Origin: Longimicrobiales bacterium
GTDB lineage: Bacteria; Gemmatimonadota; Gemmatimonadetes; Longimicrobiales; Gaopeijiaceae
NCBI GenBank assembly: GCA_041690395.1
Contig: JAWLHJ010000006.1
Span: 262,530 to 326,529 of the forward strand
Direction: 5' to 3'
Length of the DNA stretch: 64,000 nt
The translations under genes were made by a program, and so were the position numbers. Shown here piece by piece: positions 41,344 through 60,946 of the stretch. The notes beneath the pieces were generated by a model. It was not told where the DNA came from and made no database searches. It saw only the letters and a list, made by a program, of their open reading frames with translations. How positions within the stretch are numbered: the stretch's first letter is position 1; every line of letters starts with the position of its first letter.

Positions 41344-41445
41344 ACGGGGTGACCTCCGAAAACGACGACGATCCGTGGACGAGCCCATCGCGGGCACGCA
41401 AGGAAGGTCGGACCGCTCCGCGAGACCGCGCAAGCGGGACCGGCG

Positions 41446-41814
41446 TCAGCGCCTGGCGCTCTCCTCACGGCCCCCGCGTCGCCCGGGCTCGTCGCCGCCG
41501 CGGAACATCTCCTCGAGCCGACCGACCAGGGAGTCCGAGCCGGCCTCGCTCGCACCGAAGAGCCCGTCCTCACCACCCTCGGCGTCCATGCGCTCGACCA
41601 CACCGTGGAGGTTGAGCCACGCGTCGAACCGCTCGCTGCCGCGCAGCACCGAGTAGAAGAGCCGGGGCCGCCTGCCGCGCCCCGCGATCAGGTCGATGAG
41701 CATCGCACCGATGGACACGTTGAAGACGAGGATGTCCTTCAGGCCGTCCAGAGCCAGCTTGAGCTGAAAGATCGCGAAGTCCCTGAAGGTGACTCCCCTG
41801 GATGCGACGGTCAT
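41446..41814 (-). CDS. Hypothetical protein (122 aa)
   Basis: SD GGGAG; 'RDFAIFQLKLALDGLKD...FY...WLNL.G'; coherent codon bias. Confidence 0.7.
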   Translation of the reverse strand: MTVASRGVTFRDFAIFQLKLALDGLKDILVFNVSIGAMLIDLIAGRGRRPRLFYSVLRGSERFDAWLNLHGVVERMDAEGGEDGLFGASEAGSDSLVGRLEEMFRGGDEPGRRGGREESARR

Positions 41815-42010: not shown

Positions 42011-42877
42011 ATGACGCGTTTACTCCGAGCCGGCCTGGTGACGGGCCTTTCGCTCACGCTCGTGAGCGCTGAGCCGTCGGCCGTGCGCGGGACCGACGCG
42101 GCGGCTTCGGAGGGCGTCGGCGAGCTCGCCGGAAGCGCGCCGCGATCCGGAGCGCCGGCCGAGACCACGCGCCCTGTCTCCCGGGCGGCCGACTTCGAGC
42201 GCCCGGGCAGGCACGCCTTCTACTGGACGCGCGGTGCCTACTCGGACGGCGGAGGCGGCTGGGGTTGGGGGCGCCGGAACGCCTGGGCGACCGACTATCC
42301 GAAGAGCGACATCCAGTTCGTGACGGTCCTACAGCGCCTTGTCCGGCTCGACGTCTTCCAGGAGGAGAACGCCGTTCGGCTGGACGACCCGATCCTGCGA
42401 CACTTCCCCGTGCTCTACATGGTGGAGGTCGGTTACATGGACCTCGGCGACTCGGAGGTCGAGGCGCTCAGGGGCTTCCTCGATTCCGGCGGCTTCCTGA
42501 TCGTCGACGACTTCTGGGGTGCGCGCGAGTGGGCGGTGTTCGAGGACAACATCACGCGTGTGCTCCCCGACAAGCCCATCGTCGACTTGCCACTCGAGCA
42601 CCCCGTCTTCAGCGTCTTCTACGACATCGACGAGGTGAAGCAGGTGCCTGCGCGGGGACGTGGTGTCCGAGGCCGGCCCACCACGCAGTGCAGGGGCTGC
42701 GAGGCCACCGTCCGGGGCATCTTCGACGACGACGGGCGGCTGATGGTCATCATCAACTGGAACACCGACCTCGGCGACGCCTGGGAGTGGGCCGAAGACC
42801 CCTACTATCCCCTCGAGTACTCGACGTACGCCTATCAGATGGGCGCGAACATGATCGTCTACGCGATGAGCCACTGA
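42011..42877 (+). CDS. DUF4159 domain protein (copy 1, signal peptide)
   Basis: 'WATDYP', 'LR.FLDSGGFLIVDDF', 'HPVFS.FYDI', 'NTDLGDAWE', 'AYQMGANMIVYAMSH'. Confidence 0.85.
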   Translation: MTRLLRAGLVTGLSLTLVSAEPSAVRGTDAAASEGVGELAGSAPRSGAPAETTRPVSRAADFERPGRHAFYWTRGAYSDGGGGWGWGRRNAWATDYPKSDIQFVTVLQRLVRLDVFQEENAVRLDDPILRHFPVLYMVEVGYMDLGDSEVEALRGFLDSGGFLIVDDFWGAREWAVFEDNITRVLPDKPIVDLPLEHPVFSVFYDIDEVKQVPARGRGVRGRPTTQCRGCEATVRGIFDDDGRLMVIINWNTDLGDAWEWAEDPYYPLEYSTYAYQMGANMIVYAMSH

Positions 42878-42905
42878 TGCGGGAGCTTCGATACGGTGGC
42901 CCACG

Positions 42906-45191
42906 ATGAGCAGTCTGTTCGAGCTCCTCTTCAAGTACCGCCCGCTCGTCTTCGAGCAGGGCGACTTCACGTTCGCCGCGCCTGGAAACGTACGCGTGAT
43001 GGTCCTGGTCGCCGCGCTGCTCGCCATCGGCGCGATCGGCACCTATGCGCTGGTCCGGGGCCGCAGCACGCCCACCGAGCGGGGCGTCATGGCCGGCCTC
43101 CGTGTCGGACTGGTGGGGCTCGTGGTCTTCGCGCTTCTGCAGCCGACGCTGGTCGTCTCGACCGTGGTTCCGCAGCAGAACTTCCTCGGGGTGCTGATCG
43201 ACGACTCACGCAGCATGGCGCTGGCCGACGCCGACGGCTCGCCGCGGAGCGACTTCGTGACGACGCAGCTGTCGGCCGGGGAGGGCACGCTCGTCGACGC
43301 CCTCTCGGAGCGCTTCGTCCTCCGCTACTTCCGCTTCTCGGACGTCGCGAGGCGCGTGGGTTCGCCGGCGGAGCTCGGGTACGCGGGCCCACGGACCGAC
43401 CTGGCGACCGCGCTCGACGCGGCCCGCCAGGAGCTGTCGGGTGTCCCTCTCTCGGGCCTCGTGGTCGTGACGGACGGCGCCGACACCGGCGACCGTCCCA
43501 TCACGGAGGCCCTGGTCCCTCTGCAGGCCGGCCGGATCCCGGTCTTCACGGTCGGGCTGGGCGAAGAGGTGATCCGCCCGGACATCGAGGTGGGCCGGGT
43601 GGAGCTTCCGCGCGCGATTCTGGCCGGCAGCACTGTGCTGGTCGATGTCATGGTGACCCAGCACGGCATGGGACGGTCGAGCGTCCCACTCATCGTCGAG
43701 GACGACCGGCGGATCCTGTCGGAGGAGTCGATCGAGCTCGGTCCCGACGGGGAGCCCGTCGTCGCCAGGGTCTCCTTCCAGCTCGAGGAGCCGGGCCCCC
43801 ACCGCGTCCGCTTCCGGATTCCGCCTCAGGAGGGGGAGCGGGTCGACCGGAACAACGCACGTGAGGTGCTCGTCGAGGTCCGCGGGGAGCGGGAGAAGAT
43901 CCTCTACTTCGAGGGCGAGCCCCGCTTCGAGGTGAAGTTCACACGCCGCGCCGTCGAGGAGGACGAGAACCTCCAGCTCGTCGTGCTCCAGCGGACCGCC
44001 GACAGCAAGTTCCTGCGCCTCGCCGTCAGCGACAGCACGGAGCTCCAGTACGGCTTCCCCACGAGCCGCGAGGAGCTCTACCGCTACCGGGCCCTCGTGC
44101 TCGGAAGCGTCGAAGCGTCGCACTTCACGTTCGACCAGCTCGCGATGATCGCCGACTTCGTGTCCGAGCGGGGCGGCGGACTGTTGTTTCTCGGGGGCCG
44201 TGACGCTTTCGCCGAGGGCGGCTGGGCCGGAACGCCGGTGGAAGCGGTCATGCCCGTGGTGCTCGACCAGCCGACCGGCGGGGCCGACGGTTTCTTCTCC
44301 GAGGTCTCGGTCGGGCCGACGCCGGCGGGGCTGGCGCACCCCACCGTCCAGCTCGACGCGCCGATCGAGGACGTGGCCGACCGGTGGAGCGCGCTGCCAC
44401 CGCTCACCATCGTGAACCGCCTCACCCGGACCAAGCCCGGTGCGACCACGCTCCTGACCGGAGCCTCGCCGGACCTGACGCCGGACCAGGTGGTGTTGGC
44501 GTTCCAGCGGTACGGGAGGGGGAAGGCCGCGGCGCTCACCGTGCAGGACTCCTGGCTCTGGCAGATGCACGCGGACGTGCCCGTGGAGGACCAGAGCCAC
44601 GAGGCGTTCTGGCAACAGATGCTCCGCTGGCTCGTGGACGGCGTGCCCACGCCGGTGGCGGCCACCGTGGCGCGGGAGCGCGTCGATCCGTCGTCGTCCG
44701 TTCGGATTTCGGCCGCGATCGCGGACTCGACGTACATCGAGGTCAACGACGCCTCGGTCACCGCTCGCGTGACGACGCCCACCGGAGCCATCGAGGAGAT
44801 CCCGCTCGGGTGGACGGTCGAGCGGGACGGCGACTACGCCGCGGAGCTGCGCCCGGTCGAGGAAGGCGACTACGAGGTGGAGATCATCGCGGAGCGCGAC
44901 GGTGTCCCGATGGGCTCGTCACGAACCTACTTCCGGGCGGGTCCGGGCGACGACGAGTTCTTCGGCGCCGGGCGCCGCACCGCGTTCCTCGAGCGGATCG
45001 CGACGGAGACCGGAGGACGGTCCTACACGCCCGCGACCGTCGCCTCGCTGCCCGAGGACATCGCGGTCACGGGCGCCGGGGTCACGCTCGTCGAGGAGCG
45101 CGACCTGTGGGACATGCCTGCGCTCTTCCTGCTGATCCTACTCCTCATGGGCGCCGAGTGGGGCTTCCGTCGCATACGGGGGCTCGTGTGA
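42906..45191 (+). CDS. Membrane protein with vWA (MIDAS) and GATase1-like domains
   Basis: N-terminal TMs; 'LIDDSRSM' and 'TDG'; 'KILYFEGEPRFE', 'FVSERGGGLLFLGG', 'YGRGK', 'FWQQMLRWL'; C-terminal TM 'LWD...EW..RR'. Confidence 0.82.
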   Translation: MSSLFELLFKYRPLVFEQGDFTFAAPGNVRVMVLVAALLAIGAIGTYALVRGRSTPTERGVMAGLRVGLVGLVVFALLQPTLVVSTVVPQQNFLGVLIDDSRSMALADADGSPRSDFVTTQLSAGEGTLVDALSERFVLRYFRFSDVARRVGSPAELGYAGPRTDLATALDAARQELSGVPLSGLVVVTDGADTGDRPITEALVPLQAGRIPVFTVGLGEEVIRPDIEVGRVELPRAILAGSTVLVDVMVTQHGMGRSSVPLIVEDDRRILSEESIELGPDGEPVVARVSFQLEEPGPHRVRFRIPPQEGERVDRNNAREVLVEVRGEREKILYFEGEPRFEVKFTRRAVEEDENLQLVVLQRTADSKFLRLAVSDSTELQYGFPTSREELYRYRALVLGSVEASHFTFDQLAMIADFVSERGGGLLFLGGRDAFAEGGWAGTPVEAVMPVVLDQPTGGADGFFSEVSVGPTPAGLAHPTVQLDAPIEDVADRWSALPPLTIVNRLTRTKPGATTLLTGASPDLTPDQVVLAFQRYGRGKAAALTVQDSWLWQMHADVPVEDQSHEAFWQQMLRWLVDGVPTPVAATVARERVDPSSSVRISAAIADSTYIEVNDASVTARVTTPTGAIEEIPLGWTVERDGDYAAELRPVEEGDYEVEIIAERDGVPMGSSRTYFRAGPGDDEFFGAGRRTAFLERIATETGGRSYTPATVASLPEDIAVTGAGVTLVEERDLWDMPALFLLILLLMGAEWGFRRIRGLV

Positions 45192-46237
45192 GACGGCTGC
45201 GGCGAACCATCCGGACCGCATTGCTCCCCGGCGCGGCCGCGCTGGCCGTCCTGGCCGCCGCGCCCATCGCCCCGTCGGCGACCGCCTTCGAGCTCGAGGC
45301 GCAGGCGCGCACGCGAGCGCTGGTCGTGGTCGGGCTGGGCGGAACGACGGAATACCGGGAGCGCTTCAACGAACAGGCGCGCACGCTTCGGGAGGGTCTC
45401 GTCGAGCAGCACGGCCTCGACCCGGGCGACGTCGTCTACCTCGGCGAGCGAGTGGAGATCGATCCGGAGGTCATCTCGGACCGCGCCACGCGCGAGAACG
45501 TGCTCGGGGTGCTCGAGCGGTTCGCCGCCGCGTCGGACCCCGAGGACCGCGTGCTGGTGGTGCTGATCGGCCACGGGACGTCCGGCGCCGGGGGAGAAGC
45601 GTTCAACCTGCCCGGCCCGGACATCGGCCCCGACGATCTGGCCGAAGCTCTCGCCGCGTTCGGCTCGACGCCCGTCGCGTTCGTGCACACGGGAAGCGGT
45701 AGCGGCGCCTACCTGGAGCCGCTGGCGGGGCCCGACCGTATCGTGATCACGGCGACCCGAACCGGGCGCGAGTTGAACGCGACGCGCTTCGGAGAGCACT
45801 TCGTGGCGGCGCTGTCGGGCGAGGGCGCCGACATCGACCGGGACGGCCGGATCTCGCTGCTGGAGGCATACACGTACGCCCGTGACGAGGTCGCGCGGCA
45901 CTACGAGAGCGAGAACCAGATCCAGACCGAGCACGCGATGCTCGACGACGACGGAGACGGGAGCGGCACGCACGAGGCCGGCCCGGACACACCGGACGGA
46001 CGGCTCGCGAGCACGTTCGCGTTCGGAGGCCGCGTGCAGACGGACGCTCCCGAGACCGACGATCCCGAACTGGCCCGACTCTATGGGGAGCGCGCGGAGA
46101 TCCAGGGTCGCATCGAGGAGCTGAGGGCGCTGTCGGGATCGCTGGACGAGGACGTCTACCTCGCCCGGATGGAGGAGCTGCTGGTCGAGCTCGCGCTGAA
46201 GAACCGCGAGATCGCCGCAGCAGGAGGCGGGCGATGA
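45188..46237 (+). CDS. Exported caspase/C13-fold-like protein with EF-hand-like loop
   Basis: GTGA overlap; signal peptide; 'VVLIGHG', 'FVHTGSGSG', 'RIVITAT', 'DIDRDGRISLLE'; C-terminal coiled coil. Confidence 0.65.
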   Translation: MRRLRRTIRTALLPGAAALAVLAAAPIAPSATAFELEAQARTRALVVVGLGGTTEYRERFNEQARTLREGLVEQHGLDPGDVVYLGERVEIDPEVISDRATRENVLGVLERFAAASDPEDRVLVVLIGHGTSGAGGEAFNLPGPDIGPDDLAEALAAFGSTPVAFVHTGSGSGAYLEPLAGPDRIVITATRTGRELNATRFGEHFVAALSGEGADIDRDGRISLLEAYTYARDEVARHYESENQIQTEHAMLDDDGDGSGTHEAGPDTPDGRLASTFAFGGRVQTDAPETDDPELARLYGERAEIQGRIEELRALSGSLDEDVYLARMEELLVELALKNREIAAAGGGR

Positions 46238-48906
46238 GCGGCGCACGTCGGCGGTCCCCGCCCGGGCGGAGGACCACACGGATCGGCGGCGGGCTGGCGC
46301 TCGTTGCGGCGGTCCTCGCCTGGTTGCCGGCGACCGCCGGAGCACAGGCGACGTCGGACGCCAGGGCCGCACTCGACACCGGCGACTACGAGGAGGCGAT
46401 CGCGGGCTTCACGCGCGCGGTTCGCGCCGACCGGACGGCCACCGAGGCCCGGATCGGGCTCATGGAGGCGCTCCTCGCCACGGGCGAGTACGAGAGGGCC
46501 GTCGAGATCGGCGAGGATGCGCCGGCACCGTCCGCGGTCGGTTATCACCTCGGCGAGGCTCTGCTCGCGACGGGACGACGCGACGAGGCCGAGGCCGCCT
46601 TCGAGGGAACGGCCTCGACGGCAAATCGCTGGAGCCTCACCGCCGAGGCCGCGTTGGCGCGCTCGCACTTCGAGCGCGGCGCCATCGAAGAAGCCACGCG
46701 CCGCTTCGACCGCTTCATCGACGTCTACAACGCGTCGGCCGGCCGGCTGGGAGCGCTCGACCTCGTCGCCGTGGGTCACGCCGTCGCCTTCTTGGGGCGC
46801 GAGCGCCCCTCGATGTTCCAGGACGCCCTGCGCGCCTACGACGAAGCCGCGGACCGCGACCCGGCCGTCCTCGACGCCAGGGTCTCGGCGGGGGACCTCT
46901 TCCTGGCGAAGTATTCGAGCCCGGAAGCCAAGACGGAGTACGAAGCGGTCCTGTCCCGGAACCCGAACCATCCGGGCGCGCTCTTCGGCATGGCGCGGGC
47001 GCTCGAGTTCGACGGCTCCGCCGAGTCGGGGGATTACCTCCGGCGGCTCTTCGAGGTCAACCCGAACCACGTCGAGGCCCGGGCGCTCAGGGCTCGTCAG
47101 CTGCTTTCACGCGGCGACTGGGACGAGGCCCGGGCGGAGATCGAGCGGGCGCTGGCGGTGAACCCGCGCGCCCTCCCCGCGCTGACGGCGCTCGCGGGCC
47201 ATCACTTCGTGACGGGCGACGACGCCGCCTTCCGCGACGCCCGTGCCGAGGTGCTCGCCCACAACCCTCGCTACGCGGTCATGGATGCGACGCTCGCGGA
47301 GCTCGCGGTGCAGACCCGGCGCTACGCGGAGGCCGTCGAGCGCGCGGAGGCCGCGGTCGCGCTGGATTCCGCCGCCTGGGAGGCCTGGGGGCTCCTCGGC
47401 CTCAACCGCTTGCGCATCCGGGAGATCCCGGCCGGGCGCGAGGCGCTGGAGCGCGCCTTCGCGGGCGATCCGTTCAACCCGTGGTTCAAGAACACGCTCG
47501 ACCTGCTGGACACCTTCGAGCGGTTCGAGACCCGGGAGACCGAGCACTTCGAGCTCTTCGCGCGCGACGACGAGGCGGAGCTCCTCGCGACCTATCTGGC
47601 GCCCCTCGCGGAGGAAGCCTACGCGGCTCTCGCCGCCCGCTACGGCTACGAGCCCACGACGCCCATCCGGGTGGAGCTCTACCCGAGCCACGCCGACTTC
47701 TCGGTCCGCACCCTGGGTGAGGCCGGCCTCGGTGCCCTCGGTGTCAGCTTCGGCCCGGTCGTGGTCATGGACGCGCCCTCGGCACGCACCCTGGGCGAGT
47801 ACAACTGGGCGTCGGTCTTCTGGCACGAGTTGGCGCACTCGTTCCATCTGGGCATGACCGACCACCGGGTGCCGCGGTGGTTCTCGGAGGGGCTGGCGGT
47901 CCACGAGCAACGGAAGGCCCGTCCCGGGTGGGGACATCGTCCGACGCCCAGCTTCCTGACGGCGCTCCGTGACGGGCGCCTCAAGGCCGTGAGCGAGCTG
48001 AACGACGGCTTCATGCGTCCGGACTACCCGGAGCAGGTGGTACACTCCTACTACCAGGCTTCGCTCGTCTTCGAGCTCATCGAAGACCGGTGGGGCTTCG
48101 ACGCCATCCGGGCGATGCTCGACGGGCACCACCGCGGCGAGGAGCCGGAGGCGGTTCTCGAGGCAGTGCTCGGGATGTCCCCCGCTGACTTCGACGCACT
48201 CTTCGAGAGTCATCTGGACCAGCGCTTCGCGCGGGTGCTGCGGGGGCTCCCCGGCCCGGGAGCGCGCCCCGGCGCCGACGCGAGCCTGGCCGAGCACGAA
48301 GCGTTCGTGGCGTCGCGCCCGGACGATTTCGTCGCCCGCCTCGCTCTCGGGGCGCGCCTCGTCGAGGCCGGCCGCCTGGACGACGCCGAGCGGCATCTAC
48401 TCGCGGCCGCGGAGATCTTCCCCGAATACGTGGGCCCCGACGCGCCGCATGTACAGCTCGCGGCCGTCCATCGCCTGCGGGGGAACCCGGAACGGGCGGC
48501 GGAGAGCCTTGCCCTCCACGATGCCCTGGACGAAGCGAGCTATGCGACCCGCGTCGAGCGCGCGGAGCTGCTCCGGGACGTCGGACGCCCCGCCGAGGCC
48601 GCCGAGGCGCTCCAGGAGGCGGCGCTCGTCTGGCCGTACGAGATCGACCTCCACCGTGAGCTCGCCGACCTCCTCGCGGAGCTCGGTGACCACGAAGGAG
48701 AGGTGCTCGAGCGGCGGGCCGTCGTGGCCCTGCGGCCTACCGACCAGGCCGAAGCGTATTACCTACTGGCCAGGGCGGAGGCGAACGCCGGGGACGCCAC
48801 GTCCGCGCGCCGCTCGGTTCTCCGCGCGCTCGAAGTGGCGCCGAACTACGACGAGGCGCTCGAGCTGCTGCTGGAGCTCCGCGGAGGCGGGGGCGGCGAG
48901 CCATGA
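46234..48906 (+). CDS. Exported TPR protein with central zincin (peptidase MA-like) domain
   Basis: ATGA overlap; signal peptide; many TPRs; 'ETEHF', 'WHELAH', 'PRWFSEGLA', 'YYQAS'. Confidence 0.85.
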   Translation: MSGARRRSPPGRRTTRIGGGLALVAAVLAWLPATAGAQATSDARAALDTGDYEEAIAGFTRAVRADRTATEARIGLMEALLATGEYERAVEIGEDAPAPSAVGYHLGEALLATGRRDEAEAAFEGTASTANRWSLTAEAALARSHFERGAIEEATRRFDRFIDVYNASAGRLGALDLVAVGHAVAFLGRERPSMFQDALRAYDEAADRDPAVLDARVSAGDLFLAKYSSPEAKTEYEAVLSRNPNHPGALFGMARALEFDGSAESGDYLRRLFEVNPNHVEARALRARQLLSRGDWDEARAEIERALAVNPRALPALTALAGHHFVTGDDAAFRDARAEVLAHNPRYAVMDATLAELAVQTRRYAEAVERAEAAVALDSAAWEAWGLLGLNRLRIREIPAGREALERAFAGDPFNPWFKNTLDLLDTFERFETRETEHFELFARDDEAELLATYLAPLAEEAYAALAARYGYEPTTPIRVELYPSHADFSVRTLGEAGLGALGVSFGPVVVMDAPSARTLGEYNWASVFWHELAHSFHLGMTDHRVPRWFSEGLAVHEQRKARPGWGHRPTPSFLTALRDGRLKAVSELNDGFMRPDYPEQVVHSYYQASLVFELIEDRWGFDAIRAMLDGHHRGEEPEAVLEAVLGMSPADFDALFESHLDQRFARVLRGLPGPGARPGADASLAEHEAFVASRPDDFVARLALGARLVEAGRLDDAERHLLAAAEIFPEYVGPDAPHVQLAAVHRLRGNPERAAESLALHDALDEASYATRVERAELLRDVGRPAEAAEALQEAALVWPYEIDLHRELADLLAELGDHEGEVLERRAVVALRPTDQAEAYYLLARAEANAGDATSARRSVLRALEVAPNYDEALELLLELRGGGGGEP

Positions 48907-49757
48907 GCGGACTCGGACGGTACGGACTCGTGGCATGGGCGCTAGGTGGCGCGGCGGCGGTCGGCGCCGTTGCGGTCAGCGCGGGGGCGATCGGCGCGCT
49001 GACGCTCGGGCTCCCAAGCCCCGAGGCGGGGGTCGGGGCCGCGTCGTCGGCCCGCCACCAGGCACCCTCCGCCCCGCAGGAGATGACCATGCCCTACGAC
49101 GGCCGCCACCAGTTCGTGCGCATCCGATACGAGCCGCGGGGCCGCGGCGGGTTCGGGGGCTTCGGCCGCGGAGGTCGCGAGCCCATGTGGGCCCACGACT
49201 ACCCGAGGGCCGACCGCAACTTCCTCAAGATCATCGAGGAGACCACGCACCTCCGGACCCGCCCGGACGGGATGAGCGTCCTCACCGCCGACGACCCACG
49301 CCTCTTCCTGCACCCCGTGGCGTACATCGTCGAGGTCGGGGCTTGGGACCCGTCGGACGCCGAAGCGGAGGCCATGGGGGCGTACCTGAGCAAGGGCGGC
49401 TTCATCATCGTCGACGACTTTCGCGGCCGGTTCGCCCTCGACAATCTGGCGTACCAGGTCGACCGGATGCTCCCCGGGAGCCGGCTGATGCCGCTCCCGC
49501 CGGACCACCGGATCTTCGACTCGTTCTTCCGCATCATCCCCGACCAGGTCATTCCGCCCTACGGGAACGAGCCGCCGGTGTGGCTCGCGGTCTACGAGAA
49601 CAACGACCCGAGCCGCCGCATCCAGATGGTCGTGAACTACAACAACGACATCGGCGACTACTGGGAGTTCAGCGATTACGGATACTACCCGATAGACCTC
49701 TCGAACGAAGCGTACAAGCTCGGCGTCAACTACGTGGTGTACGCCTACACGAACTGA
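48903..49757 (+). CDS. DUF4159 domain protein (copy 2)
   Basis: ATGA overlap; 'WAHDYP', 'YLSKGGFIIVDDF', 'NNDIGDYWE', 'AYKLGVNYVVYA'. Confidence 0.85.
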   Translation: MSGLGRYGLVAWALGGAAAVGAVAVSAGAIGALTLGLPSPEAGVGAASSARHQAPSAPQEMTMPYDGRHQFVRIRYEPRGRGGFGGFGRGGREPMWAHDYPRADRNFLKIIEETTHLRTRPDGMSVLTADDPRLFLHPVAYIVEVGAWDPSDAEAEAMGAYLSKGGFIIVDDFRGRFALDNLAYQVDRMLPGSRLMPLPPDHRIFDSFFRIIPDQVIPPYGNEPPVWLAVYENNDPSRRIQMVVNYNNDIGDYWEFSDYGYYPIDLSNEAYKLGVNYVVYAYTN

Positions 49758-49819
49758 CCCCGCGGACCGCACGGATCACCCACCGGCCCCACGGGGCCCC
49801 ACACGAAACGGAGACAGCC

Positions 49820-50860
49820 TTGACCGACGACGCGATCGGAACGCTCACCATCGAGGACGCGGACGACGTCGCCCTGGCCGACCGCCTGAAGCGCGGCCGC
49901 GAAGAGGTCATCGGCGAGCTCAGGAAGCTCATCATCGGGCAGGAGGAGGTCATCGAGCAGGTGCTCCTGACCCTCTTCGTGGGCGGCAACAGCCTCCTCA
50001 TGGGCGTTCCCGGGCTGGCCAAGACGCTGCTCATCCATACCGTGGCCCAGGTGCTCGACCTGAGATTCTCGCGCATCCAGTTCACGCCGGACCTCATGCC
50101 GTCCGACATCACGGGCACCGACATCATCCAGGAAGACGCGCAGACGGGACGCCGCGAGATGGTCTTCGCGCCGGGCCCGGTCTTCGCGAACATCGTCCTC
50201 GCCGACGAGATCAACCGGACGCCGCCCAAGACGCAGGCCGCGCTGCTCGAGGCGATGCAGGAACACCGCGTGACCGTCCAGGGACGCACCTACACGCTCG
50301 AAGAGCCGTTCTACGTCTTCGCGACCCAGAACCCCATCGAGCTGGAAGGCACGTACCCCCTCCCCGAAGCGCAGCTCGACCGCTTCATGTTCGAGATCGT
50401 CATCGAGCATCTCTCCGAGGAGGAGGAGCTCGAGGTAGTGAGGACCACCACCGGGATCCTCGACCCGAAGTTCGGCCATGCGATCACCGGTCCGGACCTC
50501 GTCGCCTTCCAGAAGCTCGTGCGCCGGGTGCCGGTCTCCGACTCCGTTCTGCGATACGCGGTCGGGCTCACCCGGGCCAGCCGCCCGTCGCCGAACGGCG
50601 AGACCCCGGACTTCGTCAAGAAGTGGATCGCCTATGGAGCCTCCGTCCGGGCCGCGCAGTACCTGGTCCTCGGGGCCAAGGCCCGCGCGCTGACGCAGGG
50701 CCGCTACCACGTGACCTTCGAGGACATCCGCGCGCTCGCGCACCCCGTGCTGCGGCACCGGGTGCTCACCAACTTCCACGCCGAGTCGGAAGGCCGGACC
50801 TCCGGGGAGCTCATCGACATGCTCCTGGAAGCCGTGCCTGTCCCGTCCTCGGGCATGTAG
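49820..50860 (+). CDS. moxR: MoxR family AAA+ ATPase
   Basis: TTG with SD GGAG; 'GVPGLAKT', 'RIQFTPDLMPSDITG', 'LADEINRTPPKTQAALLEAMQE', 'ATQNPIE.EGTYPLPEAQLDRF'. Confidence 0.95.
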   Translation: MTDDAIGTLTIEDADDVALADRLKRGREEVIGELRKLIIGQEEVIEQVLLTLFVGGNSLLMGVPGLAKTLLIHTVAQVLDLRFSRIQFTPDLMPSDITGTDIIQEDAQTGRREMVFAPGPVFANIVLADEINRTPPKTQAALLEAMQEHRVTVQGRTYTLEEPFYVFATQNPIELEGTYPLPEAQLDRFMFEIVIEHLSEEEELEVVRTTTGILDPKFGHAITGPDLVAFQKLVRRVPVSDSVLRYAVGLTRASRPSPNGETPDFVKKWIAYGASVRAAQYLVLGAKARALTQGRYHVTFEDIRALAHPVLRHRVLTNFHAESEGRTSGELIDMLLEAVPVPSSGM

Positions 50861-50868
50861 GAGGACCG

Positions 50869-51786
50869 GTGACGGCCAGAGCTCGGACCGCCGGAGGCGG
50901 CGCCAGGTTCCTCGACCCGGGCGTGCTCGCCCGTATCGGAAACCTGGAGCTCCTCGCGCGCACCGTGGTGGACGGGTTCCTGACGGGGCTACACCGCTCG
51001 CCCTACCTCGGCTTCAGCACCGACTTCGCCGAGCACCGCGCGTACATGCCGGGCGACGACGTGCGGCGGATCGACTGGCGGCTCTTCGCGCGTACCGACC
51101 GGCATTACATCAAGCTCTTCGAGGCGGAGACGAACGCGAACGTCTCCATCCTCCTCGACGTCTCGCGGTCCATGAGCTACGGCAGCCACGAGGTCACGAA
51201 GCTCGACTACGGCCGCTACCTGGCCGCGTGCCTGGGATATCTGTCCAACCGGCAGCGCGACCGGGTCGGGCTGGTCACCTTCGACCACGAGCTCGTCGAG
51301 TACCTCCCGCCATCCATGCGGACCCCGGACACCATGCTCCACCTCCTGGACCGCGTGGATCCGGGCCGCCCCGGCGAGCTCGCCCCACCGCTGCTCCGGG
51401 CCACCGAGCTTCTCGGCCGGAAGGGGATCGTCATGCTCGTGTCCGACCTCTACGAGAATCCCGAGGACGTGCTCGCGGCGGTGGGTCCACTGCGCGCGCG
51501 CGGCCACGACGTCATCGTCTTCCACGTGCTCGACCCGATGGAGCTCGAGTTCTCGTTCGAGGGCGCCTCGGGCTTCGAGGATCTCGAGACGGGTGAGCAG
51601 ATCCCGGTCGTGCCGGAGCGGGTGAAGGCCGGGTACCGCCGGCTCATGGACGAGCACCTCGAAACGCTCGCGAAGCGCTTCAGCGACAACCGGATCGACT
51701 ACCTGCTGCTCGACAGCTCGAAGCCGCTCGACGACGCGCTCTTCCGGTACCTGTTGGCCCGTGAGCGCATGAGGACGGCGAGATGA
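50869..51786 (+). CDS. DUF58 domain protein (vWA)
   Basis: SD AGGAGG, GTG; 'GLHRSP..G.S.DFAEHR.Y.PGDD.RRIDW', 'LLDVSRSM', 'SDL'. Confidence 0.92.
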   Translation: MTARARTAGGGARFLDPGVLARIGNLELLARTVVDGFLTGLHRSPYLGFSTDFAEHRAYMPGDDVRRIDWRLFARTDRHYIKLFEAETNANVSILLDVSRSMSYGSHEVTKLDYGRYLAACLGYLSNRQRDRVGLVTFDHELVEYLPPSMRTPDTMLHLLDRVDPGRPGELAPPLLRATELLGRKGIVMLVSDLYENPEDVLAAVGPLRARGHDVIVFHVLDPMELEFSFEGASGFEDLETGEQIPVVPERVKAGYRRLMDEHLETLAKRFSDNRIDYLLLDSSKPLDDALFRYLLARERMRTAR

Positions 51787-53906
51787 GCTTCCTCGTTCCG
51801 CTCTTCCTCATCGGGCTCGCGGGGGTGGCGATCCCCATCGCGATCCACCTCACGCGGCGCCAGCGCCGGAACGTAGTGCGCTTTCCGTCGCTCATGTTCC
51901 TGGAGAAGATCCCCTACCAGGAGCAACGACGCCGCCGGGTCCAGCACTGGTTCCTGCTCCTTCTGCGGGCGCTAGCGCTCGCGCTGATCGTGTTCGCCTT
52001 CGCGCGTCCGTTCCTGGACCGTTCCGACCTCGTGGCCGGCACCGCGACCGGACCCCGTGAGGTCGTGCTCCTCGTGGACCGGTCGTACAGCATGGAGATC
52101 GGTGACCGGCTGGAGCGCGCCCGCGCCGAGACCGCGGACGTGTTGGCCGGCATGGGACCCCTCGACCGCGCCAGCCTGGTGGCCTTCGACCGGAACGCTA
52201 CCGTCCTCGTGCGGTCCACCACCGACCGTGCGCGGCTTCTGTCCGTGCTCGACACGGTCGTCGCCGGCTCGGACGTGACGCGCTTCGGGCCAGCGCTCCG
52301 CGTGGCGCAGACGATCCTCGAGGAGTCGGAGCTCCCGAACGGAGCGGTCTATCTGCTGAGCGACTTCCAGCGCACGGGGTGGGCGGCCGACGAGGGTGTG
52401 GGTCTTCCGGCGGGCTCGGAGTTCGTGCCGGTCGCGCTGGGGGACGCGGCACCGGAGAACGTCCAGATCGCGGGGCTCTCGCTGCCGCGCTCCGTCGATG
52501 CGGGGCGGGAGCGGGTGACGCCCACGGTCCGGCTCGTCCGCCGCGGAGGCTCGGAGCCGATCGAGGTGCCTGTCACGCTGGAGATCGACGGCCAGCCCAT
52601 CGGGACCGAGACGGTCGAGCTGGGCGGCGAGGGGGCCGCGACCGCCGTCTTCCCGCCCGTGACCGTATCGCGTCCACACACGCGGGGCACGGTCCTTATC
52701 CCCACGGATGCCGTGCCGGCCGACGACCGGAGGCACTTCGTCCTCTCGCCGGGATCGGTGCTACCCATCCGGGTCGTGGGCGCGCCCGGCGGCGGCGAGG
52801 ACCCGAACCTCTATCTGGAGCGGGCACTAGGCATCAGCCAGGACGGCCGGTTCGAAGTCACGGCCCGCCGCGGGAACGGGCTCGCGGCTTCGGATACCGA
52901 AGGCGTCTCGGTTCTGGTCCTGAACGACGTCCGTATCGACGGGGGCGCGGCCGAGCGGCTGCGCGCCTTCGTGGAAGAGGGGGGTGGGCTGCTGGTCGCC
53001 ATGGGTGAGAACGCGGCCTGGCCGGCGTCGGCGCTCGACCTTCTTCCGGGAGCTCCCGGCGCGCCCCGCGACCGCGAGGCCGGTCGCGGGGCCCGGCTCG
53101 GGCAGCTCGCCTACGACCACCCGATCTTCGAGGCCTTTTCCGGGCCACGGAGCGGGGACTTCGGCAACGCCCGCTTCTTCAGGGCCCGCGACGTCACGGT
53201 GTCGGACTCGGCCCAGGTCCTCGCCCGCTTCGACGACGGATCGGTGGCGCTGGCCGAACGGACCCTCGGGCGCGGACGGGTCCTCCTCTGGACTTCGACG
53301 CTCGACGGGTTCTGGAACGACCTGGCGCTGCAGCCGGTCTACCTCCCCTTCGTCCACCGGATCGCCGAGCATCTCGCGGGACGGACCGAGGCGCAGCAGG
53401 CGTTCACCGTCGGGCAGGTCCTCGACCTCGCCGACCCGCGGGCGCTCGAGGCCGCCGGCCTGGTCTCGTCCGCGGCGGAGGGACTGACCGAGGGTGCCGA
53501 GCAGGTCGCGCTCACTCCCTCCGGAGCGGGCGTGCGCATCCCGGCCGATGCCGAAACCCGCTACCTGACGCTGACCGAGCGGGGCTTCTACACGATCCGT
53601 CCACCGGGCGCCGAGCCGGACCGGCCGTTCGTCGTCGCGGTCAACGTCGATGTGGAGGAGTCGGATCTCGAGCGGATCGAGCCCGACGACGTCGCGCTGC
53701 AGGTGCGGGCGGTGACGTCGTCGGCCGAGGGAGACGGGAGTCGGCCCGCCGGGGCGGAAATGCTGGTCCGGGAGGATCAAGAGCGCAGGCAGTCGCTCTG
53801 GCGTTGGATCCTCGCGGCGGCACTCGGACTACTCATCATGGAGACGGTGCTCTCCAATTGGGTGTCACGGAGAAGCACGATGGCGTCCCGCACGACCGAG
53901 GCATAA
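51783..53906 (+). CDS. BatA-domain and vWA membrane protein
   Basis: ATGA overlap; BatA 'MSFL.P...IP..IHL...FPSL.FL...LLLLRAL..AFARP'; MIDAS 'LVDRSYSM'; C-terminal 'N...ESDL' and TM 'LWR....L...E'. Confidence 0.88.
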   Translation: MSFLVPLFLIGLAGVAIPIAIHLTRRQRRNVVRFPSLMFLEKIPYQEQRRRRVQHWFLLLLRALALALIVFAFARPFLDRSDLVAGTATGPREVVLLVDRSYSMEIGDRLERARAETADVLAGMGPLDRASLVAFDRNATVLVRSTTDRARLLSVLDTVVAGSDVTRFGPALRVAQTILEESELPNGAVYLLSDFQRTGWAADEGVGLPAGSEFVPVALGDAAPENVQIAGLSLPRSVDAGRERVTPTVRLVRRGGSEPIEVPVTLEIDGQPIGTETVELGGEGAATAVFPPVTVSRPHTRGTVLIPTDAVPADDRRHFVLSPGSVLPIRVVGAPGGGEDPNLYLERALGISQDGRFEVTARRGNGLAASDTEGVSVLVLNDVRIDGGAAERLRAFVEEGGGLLVAMGENAAWPASALDLLPGAPGAPRDREAGRGARLGQLAYDHPIFEAFSGPRSGDFGNARFFRARDVTVSDSAQVLARFDDGSVALAERTLGRGRVLLWTSTLDGFWNDLALQPVYLPFVHRIAEHLAGRTEAQQAFTVGQVLDLADPRALEAAGLVSSAAEGLTEGAEQVALTPSGAGVRIPADAETRYLTLTERGFYTIRPPGAEPDRPFVVAVNVDVEESDLERIEPDDVALQVRAVTSSAEGDGSRPAGAEMLVREDQERRQSLWRWILAAALGLLIMETVLSNWVSRRSTMASRTTEA

Positions 53907-53939
53907 GCTTCAAGTAGCGACCACGAGAGAGGCACGGAC

Positions 53940-56900
53940 ATGACGGATTCAGAGAGGAACGTCGCGGACAGGAAGCTCGAGAGGCTCGTCCGCGGTGTGC
54001 GCGCCCGATGGAAGCTCCGCCTCGTCCTCCGCGGCCTGGCGTGGACCGCCGGCCTCTCCCTCATGGTCCTGCTGGGGTCGGCGGTCGTGCTCGAGCAGGC
54101 CCGCTTCTCCGAAGACGCGCTACTCTGGCTGCGGATCGTGACCTGGGGCACGCTCGCGCTCACCTTCGTCCTGCTCGTCGTGCGACCTCTCCTTCGGCCG
54201 GTCACCGACAGCCAGGTCGCGCTCTATCTCGAGGAGCACGAGCCGTCGCTCGAGCACGCCGTGGTGAGCGCGCTGGAGGCGTCCCGGGCCACGGGCTTCT
54301 CGCCGGCACTGACCGGGCGCGTCCTCGAGCACGCGCTCGAACGGGCGGAGTCCGTGCAGAACGGCCGCCGCATCGAGCAGTCGGCGCTCTACCGGTTCGG
54401 CGGTGCGCTGACCGGGATCGTCGTCGCGGGGCTCGTCTTCGCGCTGCTCGGGCCGACCTCTGTGCGATACGGCGTGAGCGCGCTCCTGTCGCCGACCCGT
54501 GACGCGGCCGAGGTGAACCCCTACGCCGTCCTCGTCGAACCCGGTGACGCCGCGATCGCACGCGGCTCCGACCTCGTGGTGAAGGCGTCACTCCGTGGCT
54601 TCGAAACAGGCGAGGTCTCGATCTTCACGAGCTCGGGCGAGGAGGCCGCCTTCAGACGCCTGAGCATGCTTCCCGACGACGCCGGTGCCTTCGAGGTCAT
54701 GCTCCTCGGCGTCGACCAGGAGACCCGCTACTTCGTCGAGGCTTCGGGCGTCCGGTCGCCCACGTTCACGATCGAGGTCGCCGAGCTCCCCTACGTCGGA
54801 GAGCTCGACCTCACGTATCACTTCCCCGCCTACACCGGTCTCTCCCCGCGGGTCGTCGAAGGCGGCGGCGACGTCGCCGCCCTCGCGGGCACCGAGGTCG
54901 AGCTCCGCATCTCACCGACCATCGCGACGCCCGGGGGGCAGCTTCTCGTGGACGGGGAGCCGGCCGGAGCGCTGGAGCTCGCGGAGGATGGCACGTTGAC
55001 CACCCGGTTCACCGTGGAGCGTCCCGGGCTGTACGCCATCGAGCTCGCCCGTGCGAACGGCGACCTCGTCCCGGCGTCGCCCGAGTACGCCATCGACGTC
55101 CTGGAGGACCTGGAGCCGTCCATCCGCTTCACGCGCCCGGGCCGCGACATGCCTGCCTCGCCCATCGAGGAGGTCTACCTCGAGATGGAGGCGATCGACG
55201 ACTACGGCATCGGCGATGTGCGGCTCGTGTACTCCGTGAACGGAGGCCCTGAGGATACCGTGGCGGTCTTCGGCACGTCCGGCGCTCCGCTCGCGGAGGT
55301 GTCCGCGGGGCACACCCTCTATCTCGAGGAGTGGATGCTGGAGCCGGGCGATCTCGTCTCGTACTACGCGCTCGTCCGTGACAACCGCGGCCTCGGCACG
55401 CGCCGTGTCGTGGCCAGCGACATGTTCTTCCTCAACGTGCGTCCGTTCGAGCGGGCTTACCGCGAGGCGGAACAGCAGGGCGGTGGCGGCCAGGGTGGCG
55501 GCCAGCAGCCCGGCGCCGAGACCGCGCTCTCGGAGATGCAGCGGCAGATCATTTCGGCGACCTTCAACCTGATCCGCCAGCGGGACAGCTACACGCCCGA
55601 CGAGTTCGCCGAGAACGTGGTGAGCGTCGCGCTGGCGCAGGAGCGTCTGCGCGGCCAGGTGCAGACACTTCTCGAGCGGATGGGCAACAGGGGTCTGAAC
55701 GAGATCGATCCTGGATTCCGGGATGTCTCGGCGGTCCTGCCGCAGGCCTCGGAGGCGATGACCCGGGCTCAGGAGCGGCTCGACGAGCAGGAGCTCCAGG
55801 AGGCGATCCCCGCCGAGCAGGAGGCGCTCCGATTCCTGCAGCAAGCCGAGGAGACGTACGAGCGGTACGTCACCCAGCAGGAGCAGGGCGGTGGGGGCGG
55901 AGGCGGAGGGGGCAGCCCCGCCGCCGACGACCTGGCCGACCTGTTCGAGCTGGAGCTCGACAAGCTCCAGAACCAGTACGAGACCGTTCGGCGGGGTCAG
56001 CAGCAGCAGGCGGACGCCCAGGTCGACGAGCTCCTCGAGCAGCTTCAGGAGCTCGCGCGCAGGCAGGAGCAGGAGGCCGAGCGGCAGCGGCGGCGCGCCC
56101 AGGCCGGCGCACAGGGAACGCCGGGCGCGGGCGCGTCCCAGCGGAACCTCGCCGACGAGACCGAAGAGGCCGCCCGGCAGCTCGAGCGGCTCGCCCGTGA
56201 GCGCTCCGACGCCCGGCTCCAGGAGACCGCCCGTGCCATGCAGGAAGCGGCCGAGGCCATGCGGCGGTCCGCATCCGAAGGGGGGAACTCCGCGTCCGCG
56301 GGTGCCGGCGAGGCGCTCCGGCGGCTGGAAGACGCGCGTGAGTCCCTGGAGGACTCCCGCGCGGGGCGGGCCGGTCGCGACGCGCAGGACGCCTTGCGGC
56401 GGGTCGACGAGCTCCAGCGACAGCAGCGGGACGTTCAGAGCGACGTGCGCGAGCTCCCGGCGTCGGGGCCGGACCGCCGTGAGGCGATCGACCAGCTCCG
56501 CGAGCGGAAGAATCAGATGACCGAGGCCGTGCGCCAGCTCGAGCAGGATCTCGACCAGGCGGCGAGCTCCGCGCAGGCCGAGAACCCTCAGGCAGCACGG
56601 CGCTTGCAGGAAGGCGCCAACCGGATCCGCGAGAACAGCCTGAAGGAGAAGCTCCAGTACTCACGCGGAACCATCGAGCAGTGGGATCCCCAATCGGCGC
56701 TTACTCTCGAGCTCGGCATCGAGGGCGACCTCCAGGCGCTCCGGGACGAGCTCGAGGGCGCGCTCGAGGCCGCCGGCAGCAGGGAGCGGAATCCGCTCAC
56801 TGAAGCATTGGACGAGACCCGGGAGCTCGTGCGCGGAATGGAGGCGATGCAGCGCCGTCTCACCGAATCGCCCAACCAGGAGCGAGGCGGCTCCGGGGAG

Positions 56901-57521
56901 CCCGGGGAGGAGGGCGAGCCTGGCGCCGAGGGTCAGCCCGGTGCCGAGGGCCAGGAGGGTCGGCCCGGCGAGGGAGGCCAGCCCGGCCAGGAGGGTCAGC
57001 AAGGTGCGTCCGGTGAGCAGGCCGGAAGTGGCCAGCAAGGCGCGGAGCAGGGCGGCGGAAGCGGTGGCGGCGGCGGCCCCGAGCGAGGACTCAGGCCGAG
57101 CGGCGGACCCGACGAGGTCGGCCCCTGGAGCGGTGGCGGCCCCACCGGCGGGAGCCCGCGGACCTATTCACCGGAGGAGATCCGGCAGTACCGGAACGAG
57201 CTCCAGGAGCGGGCGGGACAGGTGCGCGACCTGCGCGACCAACTCCGGGAGGCGGGTCGCCCGGCCGAGGACCTCCAGGCCGTCCTGGAAGCGATGGAAC
57301 GGCTGGCCAGCGAGGGGGCGTTCGATGATCCGACGCAGGCGGCGCAACTCCAAGCCGACGCCGTGGACGCGCTCAAGCGTCTGGAGTTCGGGCTACGCCG
57401 CGAGGTCGAGGGCGAGGTGCCGCAGCGTGGCACGCTGACCGGCTCGGACGACGTGCCGGAGGGCTATCGCGCGCTGGTGGAGGAGTATTACCGGACGCTG
57501 GCGCGGGGCGGAGGATCCTAG
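53940..57521 (+). CDS. DUF4175-like large membrane-anchored protein (Ig-like region, long coiled coil, G/Q-rich linkers)
   Basis: Three N-terminal TMs; 'PAYTGL', 'DDYGI'; Q/E/R-rich heptads; C-terminal 'VPEGYRALVEEYYRTLA'. Confidence 0.82.
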   Translation: MTDSERNVADRKLERLVRGVRARWKLRLVLRGLAWTAGLSLMVLLGSAVVLEQARFSEDALLWLRIVTWGTLALTFVLLVVRPLLRPVTDSQVALYLEEHEPSLEHAVVSALEASRATGFSPALTGRVLEHALERAESVQNGRRIEQSALYRFGGALTGIVVAGLVFALLGPTSVRYGVSALLSPTRDAAEVNPYAVLVEPGDAAIARGSDLVVKASLRGFETGEVSIFTSSGEEAAFRRLSMLPDDAGAFEVMLLGVDQETRYFVEASGVRSPTFTIEVAELPYVGELDLTYHFPAYTGLSPRVVEGGGDVAALAGTEVELRISPTIATPGGQLLVDGEPAGALELAEDGTLTTRFTVERPGLYAIELARANGDLVPASPEYAIDVLEDLEPSIRFTRPGRDMPASPIEEVYLEMEAIDDYGIGDVRLVYSVNGGPEDTVAVFGTSGAPLAEVSAGHTLYLEEWMLEPGDLVSYYALVRDNRGLGTRRVVASDMFFLNVRPFERAYREAEQQGGGGQGGGQQPGAETALSEMQRQIISATFNLIRQRDSYTPDEFAENVVSVALAQERLRGQVQTLLERMGNRGLNEIDPGFRDVSAVLPQASEAMTRAQERLDEQELQEAIPAEQEALRFLQQAEETYERYVTQQEQGGGGGGGGGSPAADDLADLFELELDKLQNQYETVRRGQQQQADAQVDELLEQLQELARRQEQEAERQRRRAQAGAQGTPGAGASQRNLADETEEAARQLERLARERSDARLQETARAMQEAAEAMRRSASEGGNSASAGAGEALRRLEDARESLEDSRAGRAGRDAQDALRRVDELQRQQRDVQSDVRELPASGPDRREAIDQLRERKNQMTEAVRQLEQDLDQAASSAQAENPQAARRLQEGANRIRENSLKEKLQYSRGTIEQWDPQSALTLELGIEGDLQALRDELEGALEAAGSRERNPLTEALDETRELVRGMEAMQRRLTESPNQERGGSGEPGEEGEPGAEGQPGAEGQEGRPGEGGQPGQEGQQGASGEQAGSGQQGAEQGGGSGGGGGPERGLRPSGGPDEVGPWSGGGPTGGSPRTYSPEEIRQYRNELQERAGQVRDLRDQLREAGRPAEDLQAVLEAMERLASEGAFDDPTQAAQLQADAVDALKRLEFGLRREVEGEVPQRGTLTGSDDVPEGYRALVEEYYRTLARGGGS

Positions 57522-60355: not shown

Positions 60356-60888
60356 CGACGGGGGGACGAGCCGGTGGTACGTTCGGCAATGTGCTGCTCG
60401 TGATCGCTACGCTGTCCCTGCTCGCGGCCGTCATGTACCCGGCGGCGCGGGAGCGCGCGTTCGACGAGCGGATCGAGGCCATCGTGTCGGACATCGAGCT
60501 CGTGCGGGGCACCGTGGAAGACGTGCGGGAAGAGACGGGCAGCTGGCCCCCCAGCTCGGCCATCGCGGGCCTCGTCCCCGGTCTCCTGTCGCCGGGCGAG
60601 GCCATCGGAAGCTCTTTGGGGCGGGGACTGGAGTGGCGCCGACTGGAGTCCGTCGAGGTGCCCCCTCCCCCGGAGGGTGTGGAGGACTCCGTTCCGGAAG
60701 AGGACGACGAGCTGGGCCAGGAGGCCCCGACGCCCGAGCCGACGTTCTTCCATCGAGGAGCGCTCTCACTGCACACGACGGACGAGGAGGTCATCGGCGC
60801 GTTGCTGGACCGCTACCCGGAGTCGTTCGTGCACGACGGAGTCTGGACGCTACTCCTCCCCCGGGTGGCCGTCCCGCCCACACCGTGA
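60352..60888 (+). CDS. Type IV pilin/pseudopilin-like protein with atypical N-terminus
   Basis: ATGA overlap; 'RAG|GTFGNVLLVIATLSLLAAVMYP' with LAA at +16-18 and Pro at +22; 'TGSWP'. Confidence 0.65.
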   Translation: MTTGGRAGGTFGNVLLVIATLSLLAAVMYPAARERAFDERIEAIVSDIELVRGTVEDVREETGSWPPSSAIAGLVPGLLSPGEAIGSSLGRGLEWRRLESVEVPPPPEGVEDSVPEEDDELGQEAPTPEPTFFHRGALSLHTTDEEVIGALLDRYPESFVHDGVWTLLLPRVAVPPTP

Positions 60889-60946
60889 CCTTGGGCGGGG
60901 AAACCGACACATTACCGGTCCGTCCCAACCGAGAACCACGCGAGAC

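Follow-up and report, generated by a model that had tools for sequence, protein, structure and literature searches.

The stretch of 64,000 nucleotides analysed here (the window; contig JAWLHJ010000006.1 of a Longimicrobiales bacterium) contains, at positions 42011–57521, an operon of nine genes, numbered g1 to g9 in operon order, which is a real, conserved and enlarged version of the MoxR-proper operons of the Bat and Cmd type and is built from known protein families. Its mechanism we infer: we tentatively favour an inner-membrane machine, cycled by ATP, that captures and cleaves envelope proteins and whose likely job would be their quality control or processing, although this reading is somewhat likelier to be wrong than right. 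The open reading frames (ORFs) are all co-oriented on the plus strand, with 4-nucleotide (nt) overlaps at four junctions (g2/g3, g3/g4, g4/g5 and g7/g8), as an earlier note on this DNA had described, and gaps of 28, 62, 8 and 33 nt at the remaining ones. Lengths below are in amino acids (aa), TM denotes transmembrane helix, MIDAS denotes metal-ion-dependent adhesion site, and export was called by hydropathy.

g1, 42011–42877, plus strand: exported DUF4159 protein, 288 aa, optional copy (Pfam PF13709, E 2e-44)
g2, 42906–45191, plus strand: BatB-like inner-membrane protein, 761 aa, assigned by structure model and by profile and fold searches; predicted order two TM, split vWA with MIDAS, Ig, GATase-like, Ig, end of vWA, C-terminal TM
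g3, 45188–46237, plus strand: exported caspase/legumain-fold protein, likely pseudo-protease, 349 aa (structure model, homologue alignment)
g4, 46234–48906, plus strand: exported TPR-zincin-TPR protein, predicted active zinc peptidase, 890 aa (TPR by Pfam, motifs)
g5, 48903–49757, plus strand: second exported DUF4159 protein, 284 aa, optional copy (Pfam, E 1e-39)
g6, 49820–50860, plus strand: cytoplasmic MoxR AAA+ ATPase, 346 aa, TTG start (AAA_3, E 1e-61, and AAA_lid_2)
g7, 50869–51786, plus strand: cytoplasmic DUF58 vWA-type protein, likely MoxR adaptor, 305 aa (DUF58, E 7e-46)
g8, 51783–53906, plus strand: BatA-like inner-membrane protein, 707 aa (BatA, E 5e-21, VWA_2 and TIGR02226); predicted order BatA N-terminal double TM, vWA with full MIDAS, Ig, GATase-like, Ig, C-terminal TM
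g9, 53940–57521, plus strand: DUF4175-like inner-membrane protein, 1193 aa (DUF4175, 56.1 bits); three TM surrounding a helical domain predicted to be cytoplasmic, and after them beta-rich and long helical regions in the periplasm

The domain assignments made in the earlier note stood up when checked with hidden Markov models: DUF4159 (g1, g5), TPR (g4), AAA_3 with AAA_lid_2 (g6), DUF58 (g7), BatA with VWA_2 (g8) and DUF4175 (g9) all scored above the Pfam cut-off. No Pfam match above cut-off was obtained for g2, whose vWA and GATase-like domains were established by profile and fold searches, and two peptidase matches fell below the cut-off (Peptidase_C13 in g3, E 0.006; Peptidase_MA_2 in g4, E 0.0006). 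Cysteine is absent from seven of the nine proteins; there is one in g7 and two in g1. Promoter and terminator prediction across the operon gave no sigma-70 promoter and one terminator, at or below the levels obtained with shuffled sequence.

The operon is single-copy in the source genome, which named homologues assign to Gemmatimonadota and probably to Longimicrobiales; in it g3 and g4 match at this locus only, and distant paralogues of MoxR, DUF58, BatA, DUF4159 and g9 lie elsewhere (five MoxR genes and five DUF4159 matches in total). Among 41 close relatives g3 was detected in 27; loci were fetched for 18 of the 26 non-self matches, the other eight being on short contigs and left out, and gene order was kept in all 18, with g1 missing from two and g5 from one. 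Phylum-wide, 40 of 121 genomes have g4 and 39 have a strong orthologue of g9 (E<1e-70), every one of the 39 being among the 40. Twenty of the 39 non-self g4 genomes were fetched, all with g2-g3-g4-g6-g7-g8, 19 with g9 (one contig ends), 16 with g5 and 4 with g1. A scan of all species, anchored on g4, gave at least 591 confirmed g4 relatives, of which the best 80 were kept; these include Acidobacteriota and a few genomes labelled as Gammaproteobacteria. Gene order was broken in none of these best 80 of at least 591, and 40 of them have full flanks: g4 and g6–g9 are present in 40/40, g2 and g3 in 38/40, g5 in 35/40, g1 in 34/40 and all nine genes in 30/40, with g7 directly after g6 in every case (40/40). 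In the two loci without g2-g3 in cis, g3 is encoded elsewhere in the same genomes. These sample sets overlap and are related by kinship; the counts were neither summed nor tested statistically.

Of 121 Acidobacteriota genomes, 30 have g2 and 28 have g4, each of the latter also having g2. Twenty loci from this phylum, chosen to include odd cases, comprise nine with the window's gene order, four permuted (g4-DUF4159-g6-g7-g8-g9-g2-g3), four without g4 in cis (g4 lies elsewhere in their genomes), one without g3 and g4, one orphan g4 and one distant cluster. Wherever both occur among the fetched loci, including the four permuted operons, g3 immediately follows g2. The fixed blocks are thus g6-g7-g8-g9 and g2-g3, the DUF4159 copy number is variable, and g4 is usual but not obligatory. 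The expectation that the peptidase-like genes travel with the MoxR core is borne out by the co-occurrence of g4 with g9 in one phylum and with g2 in the other, and by the complete loci (30/40 in the best 80 of at least 591), whereas a fixed set of nine genes is not, as g1 and g5 come and go and g4 can be missing in cis. The operon is also present in a cultured strain, Gemmatirosa kalamazoonensis KBS708, whose 1.1-Mb plasmid (NZ_CP007129.1, about 735.5–750.5 kb) carries g2-g3-g4-DUF4159-g6-g7-g8-g9 and thus all but one of the nine genes.

Several features of individual loci may be mentioned here. Inserts between g5 and g6 or between g3 and g4 in some relatives were considered as extra components and rejected, being read as unrelated mobile or opposite-strand genes. 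Loci labelled as gammaproteobacterial (L084–L087) score like Longimicrobiales loci, and in genome G159 there are two copies with identical scores; labels or bins may be wrong. Loci L093, L110, L114 and L123 are more divergent, have no g5 and may be true transfers. Several operon genes are fragmented in loci L079 and L119, which likely reflects sequencing errors and not decay. A Planctomyces plasmid (NZ_CP011276.1; L167:1-8531) carries MoxR-DUF58-BatA-vWA with g8-like and g2-like proteins; no g3 or g4 match was found in this cluster, and other unassigned genes come after it.

The one gene resembling a working peptidase is g4, a predicted active gluzincin judging from its motifs. Its putative active-site residues (H531-E532-x-x-H535, E552 17 residues later, and Y606) are flanked by two TPR blocks; all five are conserved in 38/38 family members, and HExxH..E is also found in 14 further Acidobacteriota copies. 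Peptidase_MA_2 is matched by all 38 members of the g4 family (best E 2e-15), the window's own domain scoring 23.9 bits against a cut-off of 32.4; a search of the Protein Data Bank (PDB) with the g4 zincin profile found no solved relative.

In Foldseek the closest resemblances of the g3 model (predicted local distance difference test, pLDDT, 94.4) are to legumains and metacaspases (E about 1e-8), with structural comparison giving Z 21.5 to metacaspase 4 (root-mean-square deviation, rmsd, 2.6; 209 residues aligned), 21.0 to legumain and 18.7 to PIG-K; phmmer of g3 against the PDB gave one chance match only. His129 is conserved in 112/112 homologues. The nucleophile site, placed in register by profile alignment to the legumain cysteine (a weak match, E 0.88), holds Ser in 93, Pro in 10, Ala in 8, Thr in 1 and Cys in none of the 112; it is Ser170 in the window protein, which contains no cysteine anywhere. 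A C-terminal helical hairpin and a DxDxDG loop with near-invariant acids, which we take to be EF-hand-like, complete the protein. From the model, g3 is most simply seen as a likely calcium- and peptide-binding pseudo-protease. The earlier note had spoken of two peptidase-like components; that both are working peptidases we reject: Ser, Pro or Ala stands in g3 for the catalytic Cys, found in 0/112 homologues, and g4 alone keeps HExxH..E.

The membrane core consists of g2, g8 and g9. Profile alignment (hhalign, 99.3% over 557 columns) indicates that g2 and g8 are full-length paralogues. In the g2 model (pLDDT 90.1) the GATase-like domain occupies residues 331–579 (Z 22.4, rmsd 2.6, 214 aligned) and the vWA domain matches BatB (3ibs; Z 18.9), the 180 residues that align being scattered between 88 and 727. 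As the vWA structural matches run from 88 to 727 yet align only 150–180 residues, an arm of about 460 residues appears to be inserted in the g2 vWA domain, which in the model closes about ten residues before the last TM helix. The profile of g2 matches 4jdu (E 6e-11), and its top Foldseek match is OST48/Wbp1 (E 2.5e-9), a partial one with a TM-score of 0.2–0.35. The three DxSxS MIDAS proteins named in the earlier note (g2, g7 and g8) were confirmed by motif, with the motif conserved among homologues: D99, S103, D190 and Thr/Ser164 of g2 are each kept in 64/64, and D99, S101, S103, T166 and D194 of g8 in 68/68. Glutamine amidotransferase activity was rejected for both proteins, since the GATase fold is present but neither contains a cysteine. 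An acidic residue lies in or at the end of the last TM helix of each (g2 Glu751, acidic in 64/64, in the region of 45191; g8 Glu687, acidic in 68/68, in the region of 53846), which could pair with conserved Arg residues in the N-terminal helices or form part of a site for ions or for coupling.

The hydrophobic segments of g9 are at 28–46, 60–82 and 149–175, and by the positive-inside rule residues 83–148 would be cytoplasmic. Within this region Glu98 is acidic in 98/100 and Glu99 in 97/100 aligned orthologues, and Glu98 is acidic also in 18/18 further Acidobacteriota copies and 5/5 aligning distant paralogues (17 loci). The long coiled coil ascribed to g9 rests on amino-acid composition. DUF4175 is an alphaproteobacterial family, which we take to be the one also modelled as TIGR02302; among 14 control genomes DUF4159 scored above cut-off in Caulobacter vibrioides, in which the DUF4175 model was silent. 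The two DUF4159 proteins of the window are 34% identical, and g1 has a profile match to PDB 4i66 (E 2e-15). For 11 of 14 distant g9 paralogues the immediate upstream neighbour is a DUF4159 gene, and the source genome holds a compact cluster of MoxR, DUF58, a BatA_N protein and a 1005-aa protein in which a g9-like N-terminus is fused to DUF4159 (L129:449-7043 = G000:C4:18948-25542), both of which point to g9 as the DUF4159 partner. A third set, also on G000:C4, is dispersed over two clusters: one (L130:2578-9651) encodes DUF4159, a g9 paralogue of 1126 aa, a TPR protein and an unassigned exported protein, the other (L131:732-3657) DUF58-BatA.

The putative motor is formed by g6 and g7. The ATPase has intact Walker A (GVPGLAKT) and Walker B (DE) motifs as well as ATQNP, LDRF and LRHR, and g7, which has no membrane segment, keeps D97, S99, S101 and D193 in 36/36 homologues. 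In the NorQ/NorD system a MoxR hexamer holds a vWA adaptor, the MIDAS of which grips an acidic residue on a membrane target (PMC9976466; papers are cited here and below for the extracts of them that we consulted). Docking of this kind was modelled by complex prediction with g9 residues 1–195, g8 residues 1–90 and Mg, with g7 as partner and with replacement controls. The predictions scored 0.70, 0.72 and 0.70 and the g7-replaced controls 0.00, but the g9-replaced control scored 0.78, which falls short of a specific result, and the prediction carries no weight for or against binding.

Topology was assigned with a hydropathy heuristic for a hydrophobic stretch before the core domain. Such a stretch is present in 52/69 homologues of g1, 107/114 of g3, 74/80 of g4 and 67/80 of g5, and in 0/117 of MoxR and 0/72 of DUF58. 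This agrees with the four signal-peptide-like N-termini noted earlier, although the window's own g1 falls just below the threshold (1.87). With g6 and g7 inside, and g1, g3, g4, g5 and both vWA heads outside, ATP energy could reach the periplasmic parts only via the membrane proteins. Linkage and topology together uphold the idea of a conserved unit in which MoxR and DUF58, both cytoplasmic, go together with proteins that are exported or sit in the membrane. Of the "trans-envelope machine" proposed in the earlier note, the inner membrane and periplasm are indicated, but the term is too strong, as no outer-membrane component was identified among the operon products.

We propose the following scheme for an ATP-cycled capture-and-cleave machine. 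By analogy with NorQ/NorD, the MoxR hexamer would hold DUF58, whose MIDAS would bind an acidic residue on a membrane target, probably the cytoplasmic face of g8 or g9, where DUF58 might dock on Glu98 of g9 or on the BatA-type loop of g8. Through this adaptor MoxR might repeatedly tug the membrane complex, so that metal-dependent grips in the periplasm capture and release envelope proteins. From their paralogy and the g2 model, g2 and g8 may form a heterodimer in which the split vWA domains close just above the last membrane helices. Integrin I-domains switch affinity in an analogous way, and movement of the last helix in g2 and g8 could likewise switch that of the MIDAS. Gene order would place g3 on g2, as a calcium- and peptide-binding pseudo-protease, and gene order together with the fusion would place DUF4159 on g9; g3 and the TPRs may then select clients, some of which g4, putatively the sole catalyst and an accessory able to act in trans, would cleave. 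In this scheme proteolysis would be coupled to ATP. In its most specific form the proposal is of a periplasmic protease run from the cytoplasm, in which a MoxR/DUF58 pull would close two split vWA domains in an integrin-like, inside-out manner, a His-Ser pseudo-caspase would select and a TPR-caged zinc peptidase would cut, with the same core explaining Bat and Cmd and the exported modules being swappable by lineage; taken whole, this is rather improbable.

The capture-and-cleave reading draws on the conserved linkage of g4 with g9 in Gemmatimonadota and with g2 in Acidobacteriota, on the near-invariance of both periplasmic MIDAS sites and of the zinc motif, on the split vWA of the g2 model together with the g2/g8 paralogy and the constant position of g3 after g2, and on the fusion of DUF4159 to a g9-like N-terminus and its position adjoining g9 paralogues. 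It also draws on published work: mutants of Rhizobium cmdA–D are described, at second hand, as having envelope and morphology defects (PMC5700661), and in Rhodobacter a MoxR gene and a TIGR02302 gene both have CenR sites upstream (PMC9275681), which we count in its favour.

A number of observations weigh against it. At five of the 20 selected Acidobacteriota loci g4 is not in cis, and in genome G253 the core is present but neither g3 nor g4 was matched, so that proteolysis is not required for the core. The operon is patchy, being present in about a third or a quarter of the genomes searched, and thus does not serve a housekeeping need. No conserved MIDAS Thr was found in g7 among 36 homologues, and Glu98 of g9 may be structural. 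The functions of the nine proteins are predicted from genes and models, and the integrin-like switch would depend on a single-chain model and on analogy with integrins. Finally, bat deletions in Leptospira biflexa are described as free of growth, shape or oxidative-stress defects in the extract of PMC3557215.

In a second reading MoxR and DUF58 act once, assembling or metal-loading a membrane complex; there would be no recurring power stroke, and the complex would afterwards merely hold g3, g4 and DUF4159 in the periplasm as a static scaffold. This is unlikely but has a real chance of being right: NorQ and NorD depart once they have acted on an intermediate of assembly (PMC9976466), metal loading of the Bat MIDAS sites has been proposed as a task of MoxR (PMC3557215), and the GATase-like, Ig and TM part of g2 resembles the non-catalytic scaffold OST48/Wbp1. 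However, the membrane separates MoxR from the MIDAS sites in the periplasm, the split-vWA layout suits a moving part, and each related cluster in the source genome has its own MoxR and/or DUF58, all of which count against it.

The patchy distribution, together with likely horizontal spread into some of the Gammaproteobacteria-labelled genomes, would also suit an inducible defence against competitors' envelope-damaging toxins, in which the periplasmic parts catch foreign proteins that the motor and peptidase then remove, and Pseudomonas arc2 (MoxR and vWA) indeed protects against a pore-forming toxin (PMC8926400). We consider this quite improbable given the high, even conservation and fixed order of the operon, in which no variable effector slot was seen among the loci read and the inserts seen there read as unrelated mobile genes.

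It is distinctly improbable that the system is an outside-in sensor, with g3 or the vWA heads binding a periplasmic cue and MoxR signalling to cytoplasmic regulators. In the Esr pathway, signals of a threat are passed on by MoxR-vWA pairs (PMC13622651), loss of moxR alters bat transcription in Riemerella (PMC11834572), and g3 resembles a binder more than an enzyme; against this, Pfam and NCBIfam scans of the nine proteins gave no kinase, FHA or DNA-binding family match, and g6 is far closer to AAA_3 (206.8 bits) than to bpMoxR (38.5).

The fold matches of g3 to PIG-K (Z 18.7) and of g2 to OST48/Wbp1 raise the idea of a protein-conjugation complex, comparable to GPI transamidase or oligosaccharyltransferase, in which Ser-His chemistry in g3 (His129 invariant; Ser at the nucleophile site in 93/112) cuts and re-ligates exported proteins. 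This is very unlikely, as 18/112 homologues have Pro or Ala at that site, PIG-K scores below metacaspases and legumains, the OST48 TM-score is 0.2–0.35, none of the nine genes is a transferase, and pseudo-orthocaspases with a Cys-to-Ser change are presumed inactive (PMC6426788). Export of reducing power or repair of oxidised proteins, the original Bat "aerotolerance" model proposed for Bacteroides fragilis (via PMC3557215), is barely credible here: Riemerella batA and moxR mutants do show altered oxidative-stress survival (PMC11834572), but seven of the nine proteins have no Cys, no redox family was matched by them in Pfam or NCBIfam, and the Leptospira mutants are reported without an oxidative phenotype (PMC3557215).

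The earlier note had called the system undescribed, which is true of this version, as no publication describing the nine-gene set was found in the literature searched (mostly open-access main texts), but it is not unprecedented, since it extends the Bat/Cmd operon type. The same literature held nothing on DUF4159 together with MoxR and, on DUF4159 alone, only a Pfam update. The cmdA–D operon of Rhizobium leguminosarum presumably contains BatA_N, DUF4159 and a GATase-like domain. Like the present operon it unites MoxR, DUF58 and vWA membrane proteins (RL3499–RL3502; PMC5700661), and mutants of RL3499 and RL3500 are growth-impaired on rich medium (PMC5118466); it has only four genes, however, whereas in the present operon the DUF4159 proteins are free and exported, and genes for a DUF4175-like protein, a pseudo-caspase and a TPR-zincin are added. 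Bat operons (Bacteroides, Riemerella, Francisella, Leptospira, Borrelia) share with it a MoxR-proper ATPase, DUF58, a TPR protein, the BatA N-terminal double TM with vWA, and a second vWA paralogue (compare g2 with BatB 3ibs, and 4jdu). Unlike them, the present operon has MoxR in mid-operon, vWA domains carrying an inserted arm of about 460 residues, and additional DUF4159, DUF4175, caspase-fold and zincin genes, while its nine proteins gave no BatD or SH3 match (E<=0.01, Pfam and NCBIfam). The MoxR/DUF58/vWA core shared by Bat and cmdA–D has no agreed function in the extracts of PMC5700661, PMC11834572 and PMC3557215.

NorQ/NorD and CbbQ/CbbO offer the AAA+ hexamer with a MIDAS adaptor as a likely motor principle, but belong to other MoxR subfamilies, have one known enzyme target and lack a periplasmic module. 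In the MoxR-vWA-YebA transglutaminase-like system, MoxR and vWA are likewise joined to a peptidase and membrane-proximal degradation has been proposed (Zhang and Aravind 2012, PMC3495828); that peptidase is predicted to be cytoplasmic beside MoxR, whereas the present one is exported and of another clan, and the nine proteins gave no Pfam match to a transglutaminase-like membrane peptidase. Bacterial pseudo-orthocaspases resemble g3 in having a caspase fold with Ser for the catalytic Cys, but theirs also carry a His-to-Tyr change and occur in phototrophs, whereas g3 keeps the His, is exported and lies in a MoxR operon (PMC6426788). The MoxR-vWA-beta-propeller ternary conflict systems are made up of a bpMoxR ATPase, a propeller and effectors (PMC13622651), a combination not seen in the present nine genes, which have no beta-propeller or effector family match in Pfam.

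Operons of the MoxR/DUF58/BatA type occur widely and have been tied to phenotypes of the envelope, of stress or of virulence in several species, with no mechanism established. As the periplasm has no ATP, a motor acting on periplasmic proteins through the inner membrane would, if true, be a new route of energy coupling. The intact active-site motif of g4 offers cleavage products as a direct read-out, and single residues can be named for mutation. The carriers are hard to manipulate, although the operon occurs in a cultured strain, and the families are already known and the mechanism inferred.

Upstream of the operon and divergent from it are a 122-aa ORF with no assignment (41449–41814, minus strand) and a gene (39040–41433, minus strand) encoding, from its translation, a probable exported dipeptidyl-peptidase-like serine hydrolase with a GHSGGG motif. 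Downstream, past a convergent small gene that looks response-regulator-like, lies what we take by eye to be an EttA-like ABC-F protein (58182–59864, plus strand), followed by a long ORF leaving the window (60677–64000, plus strand), the motifs of which we presume to mark a fusion of phosphotransferase-like, M23-like and class III aminotransferase parts.

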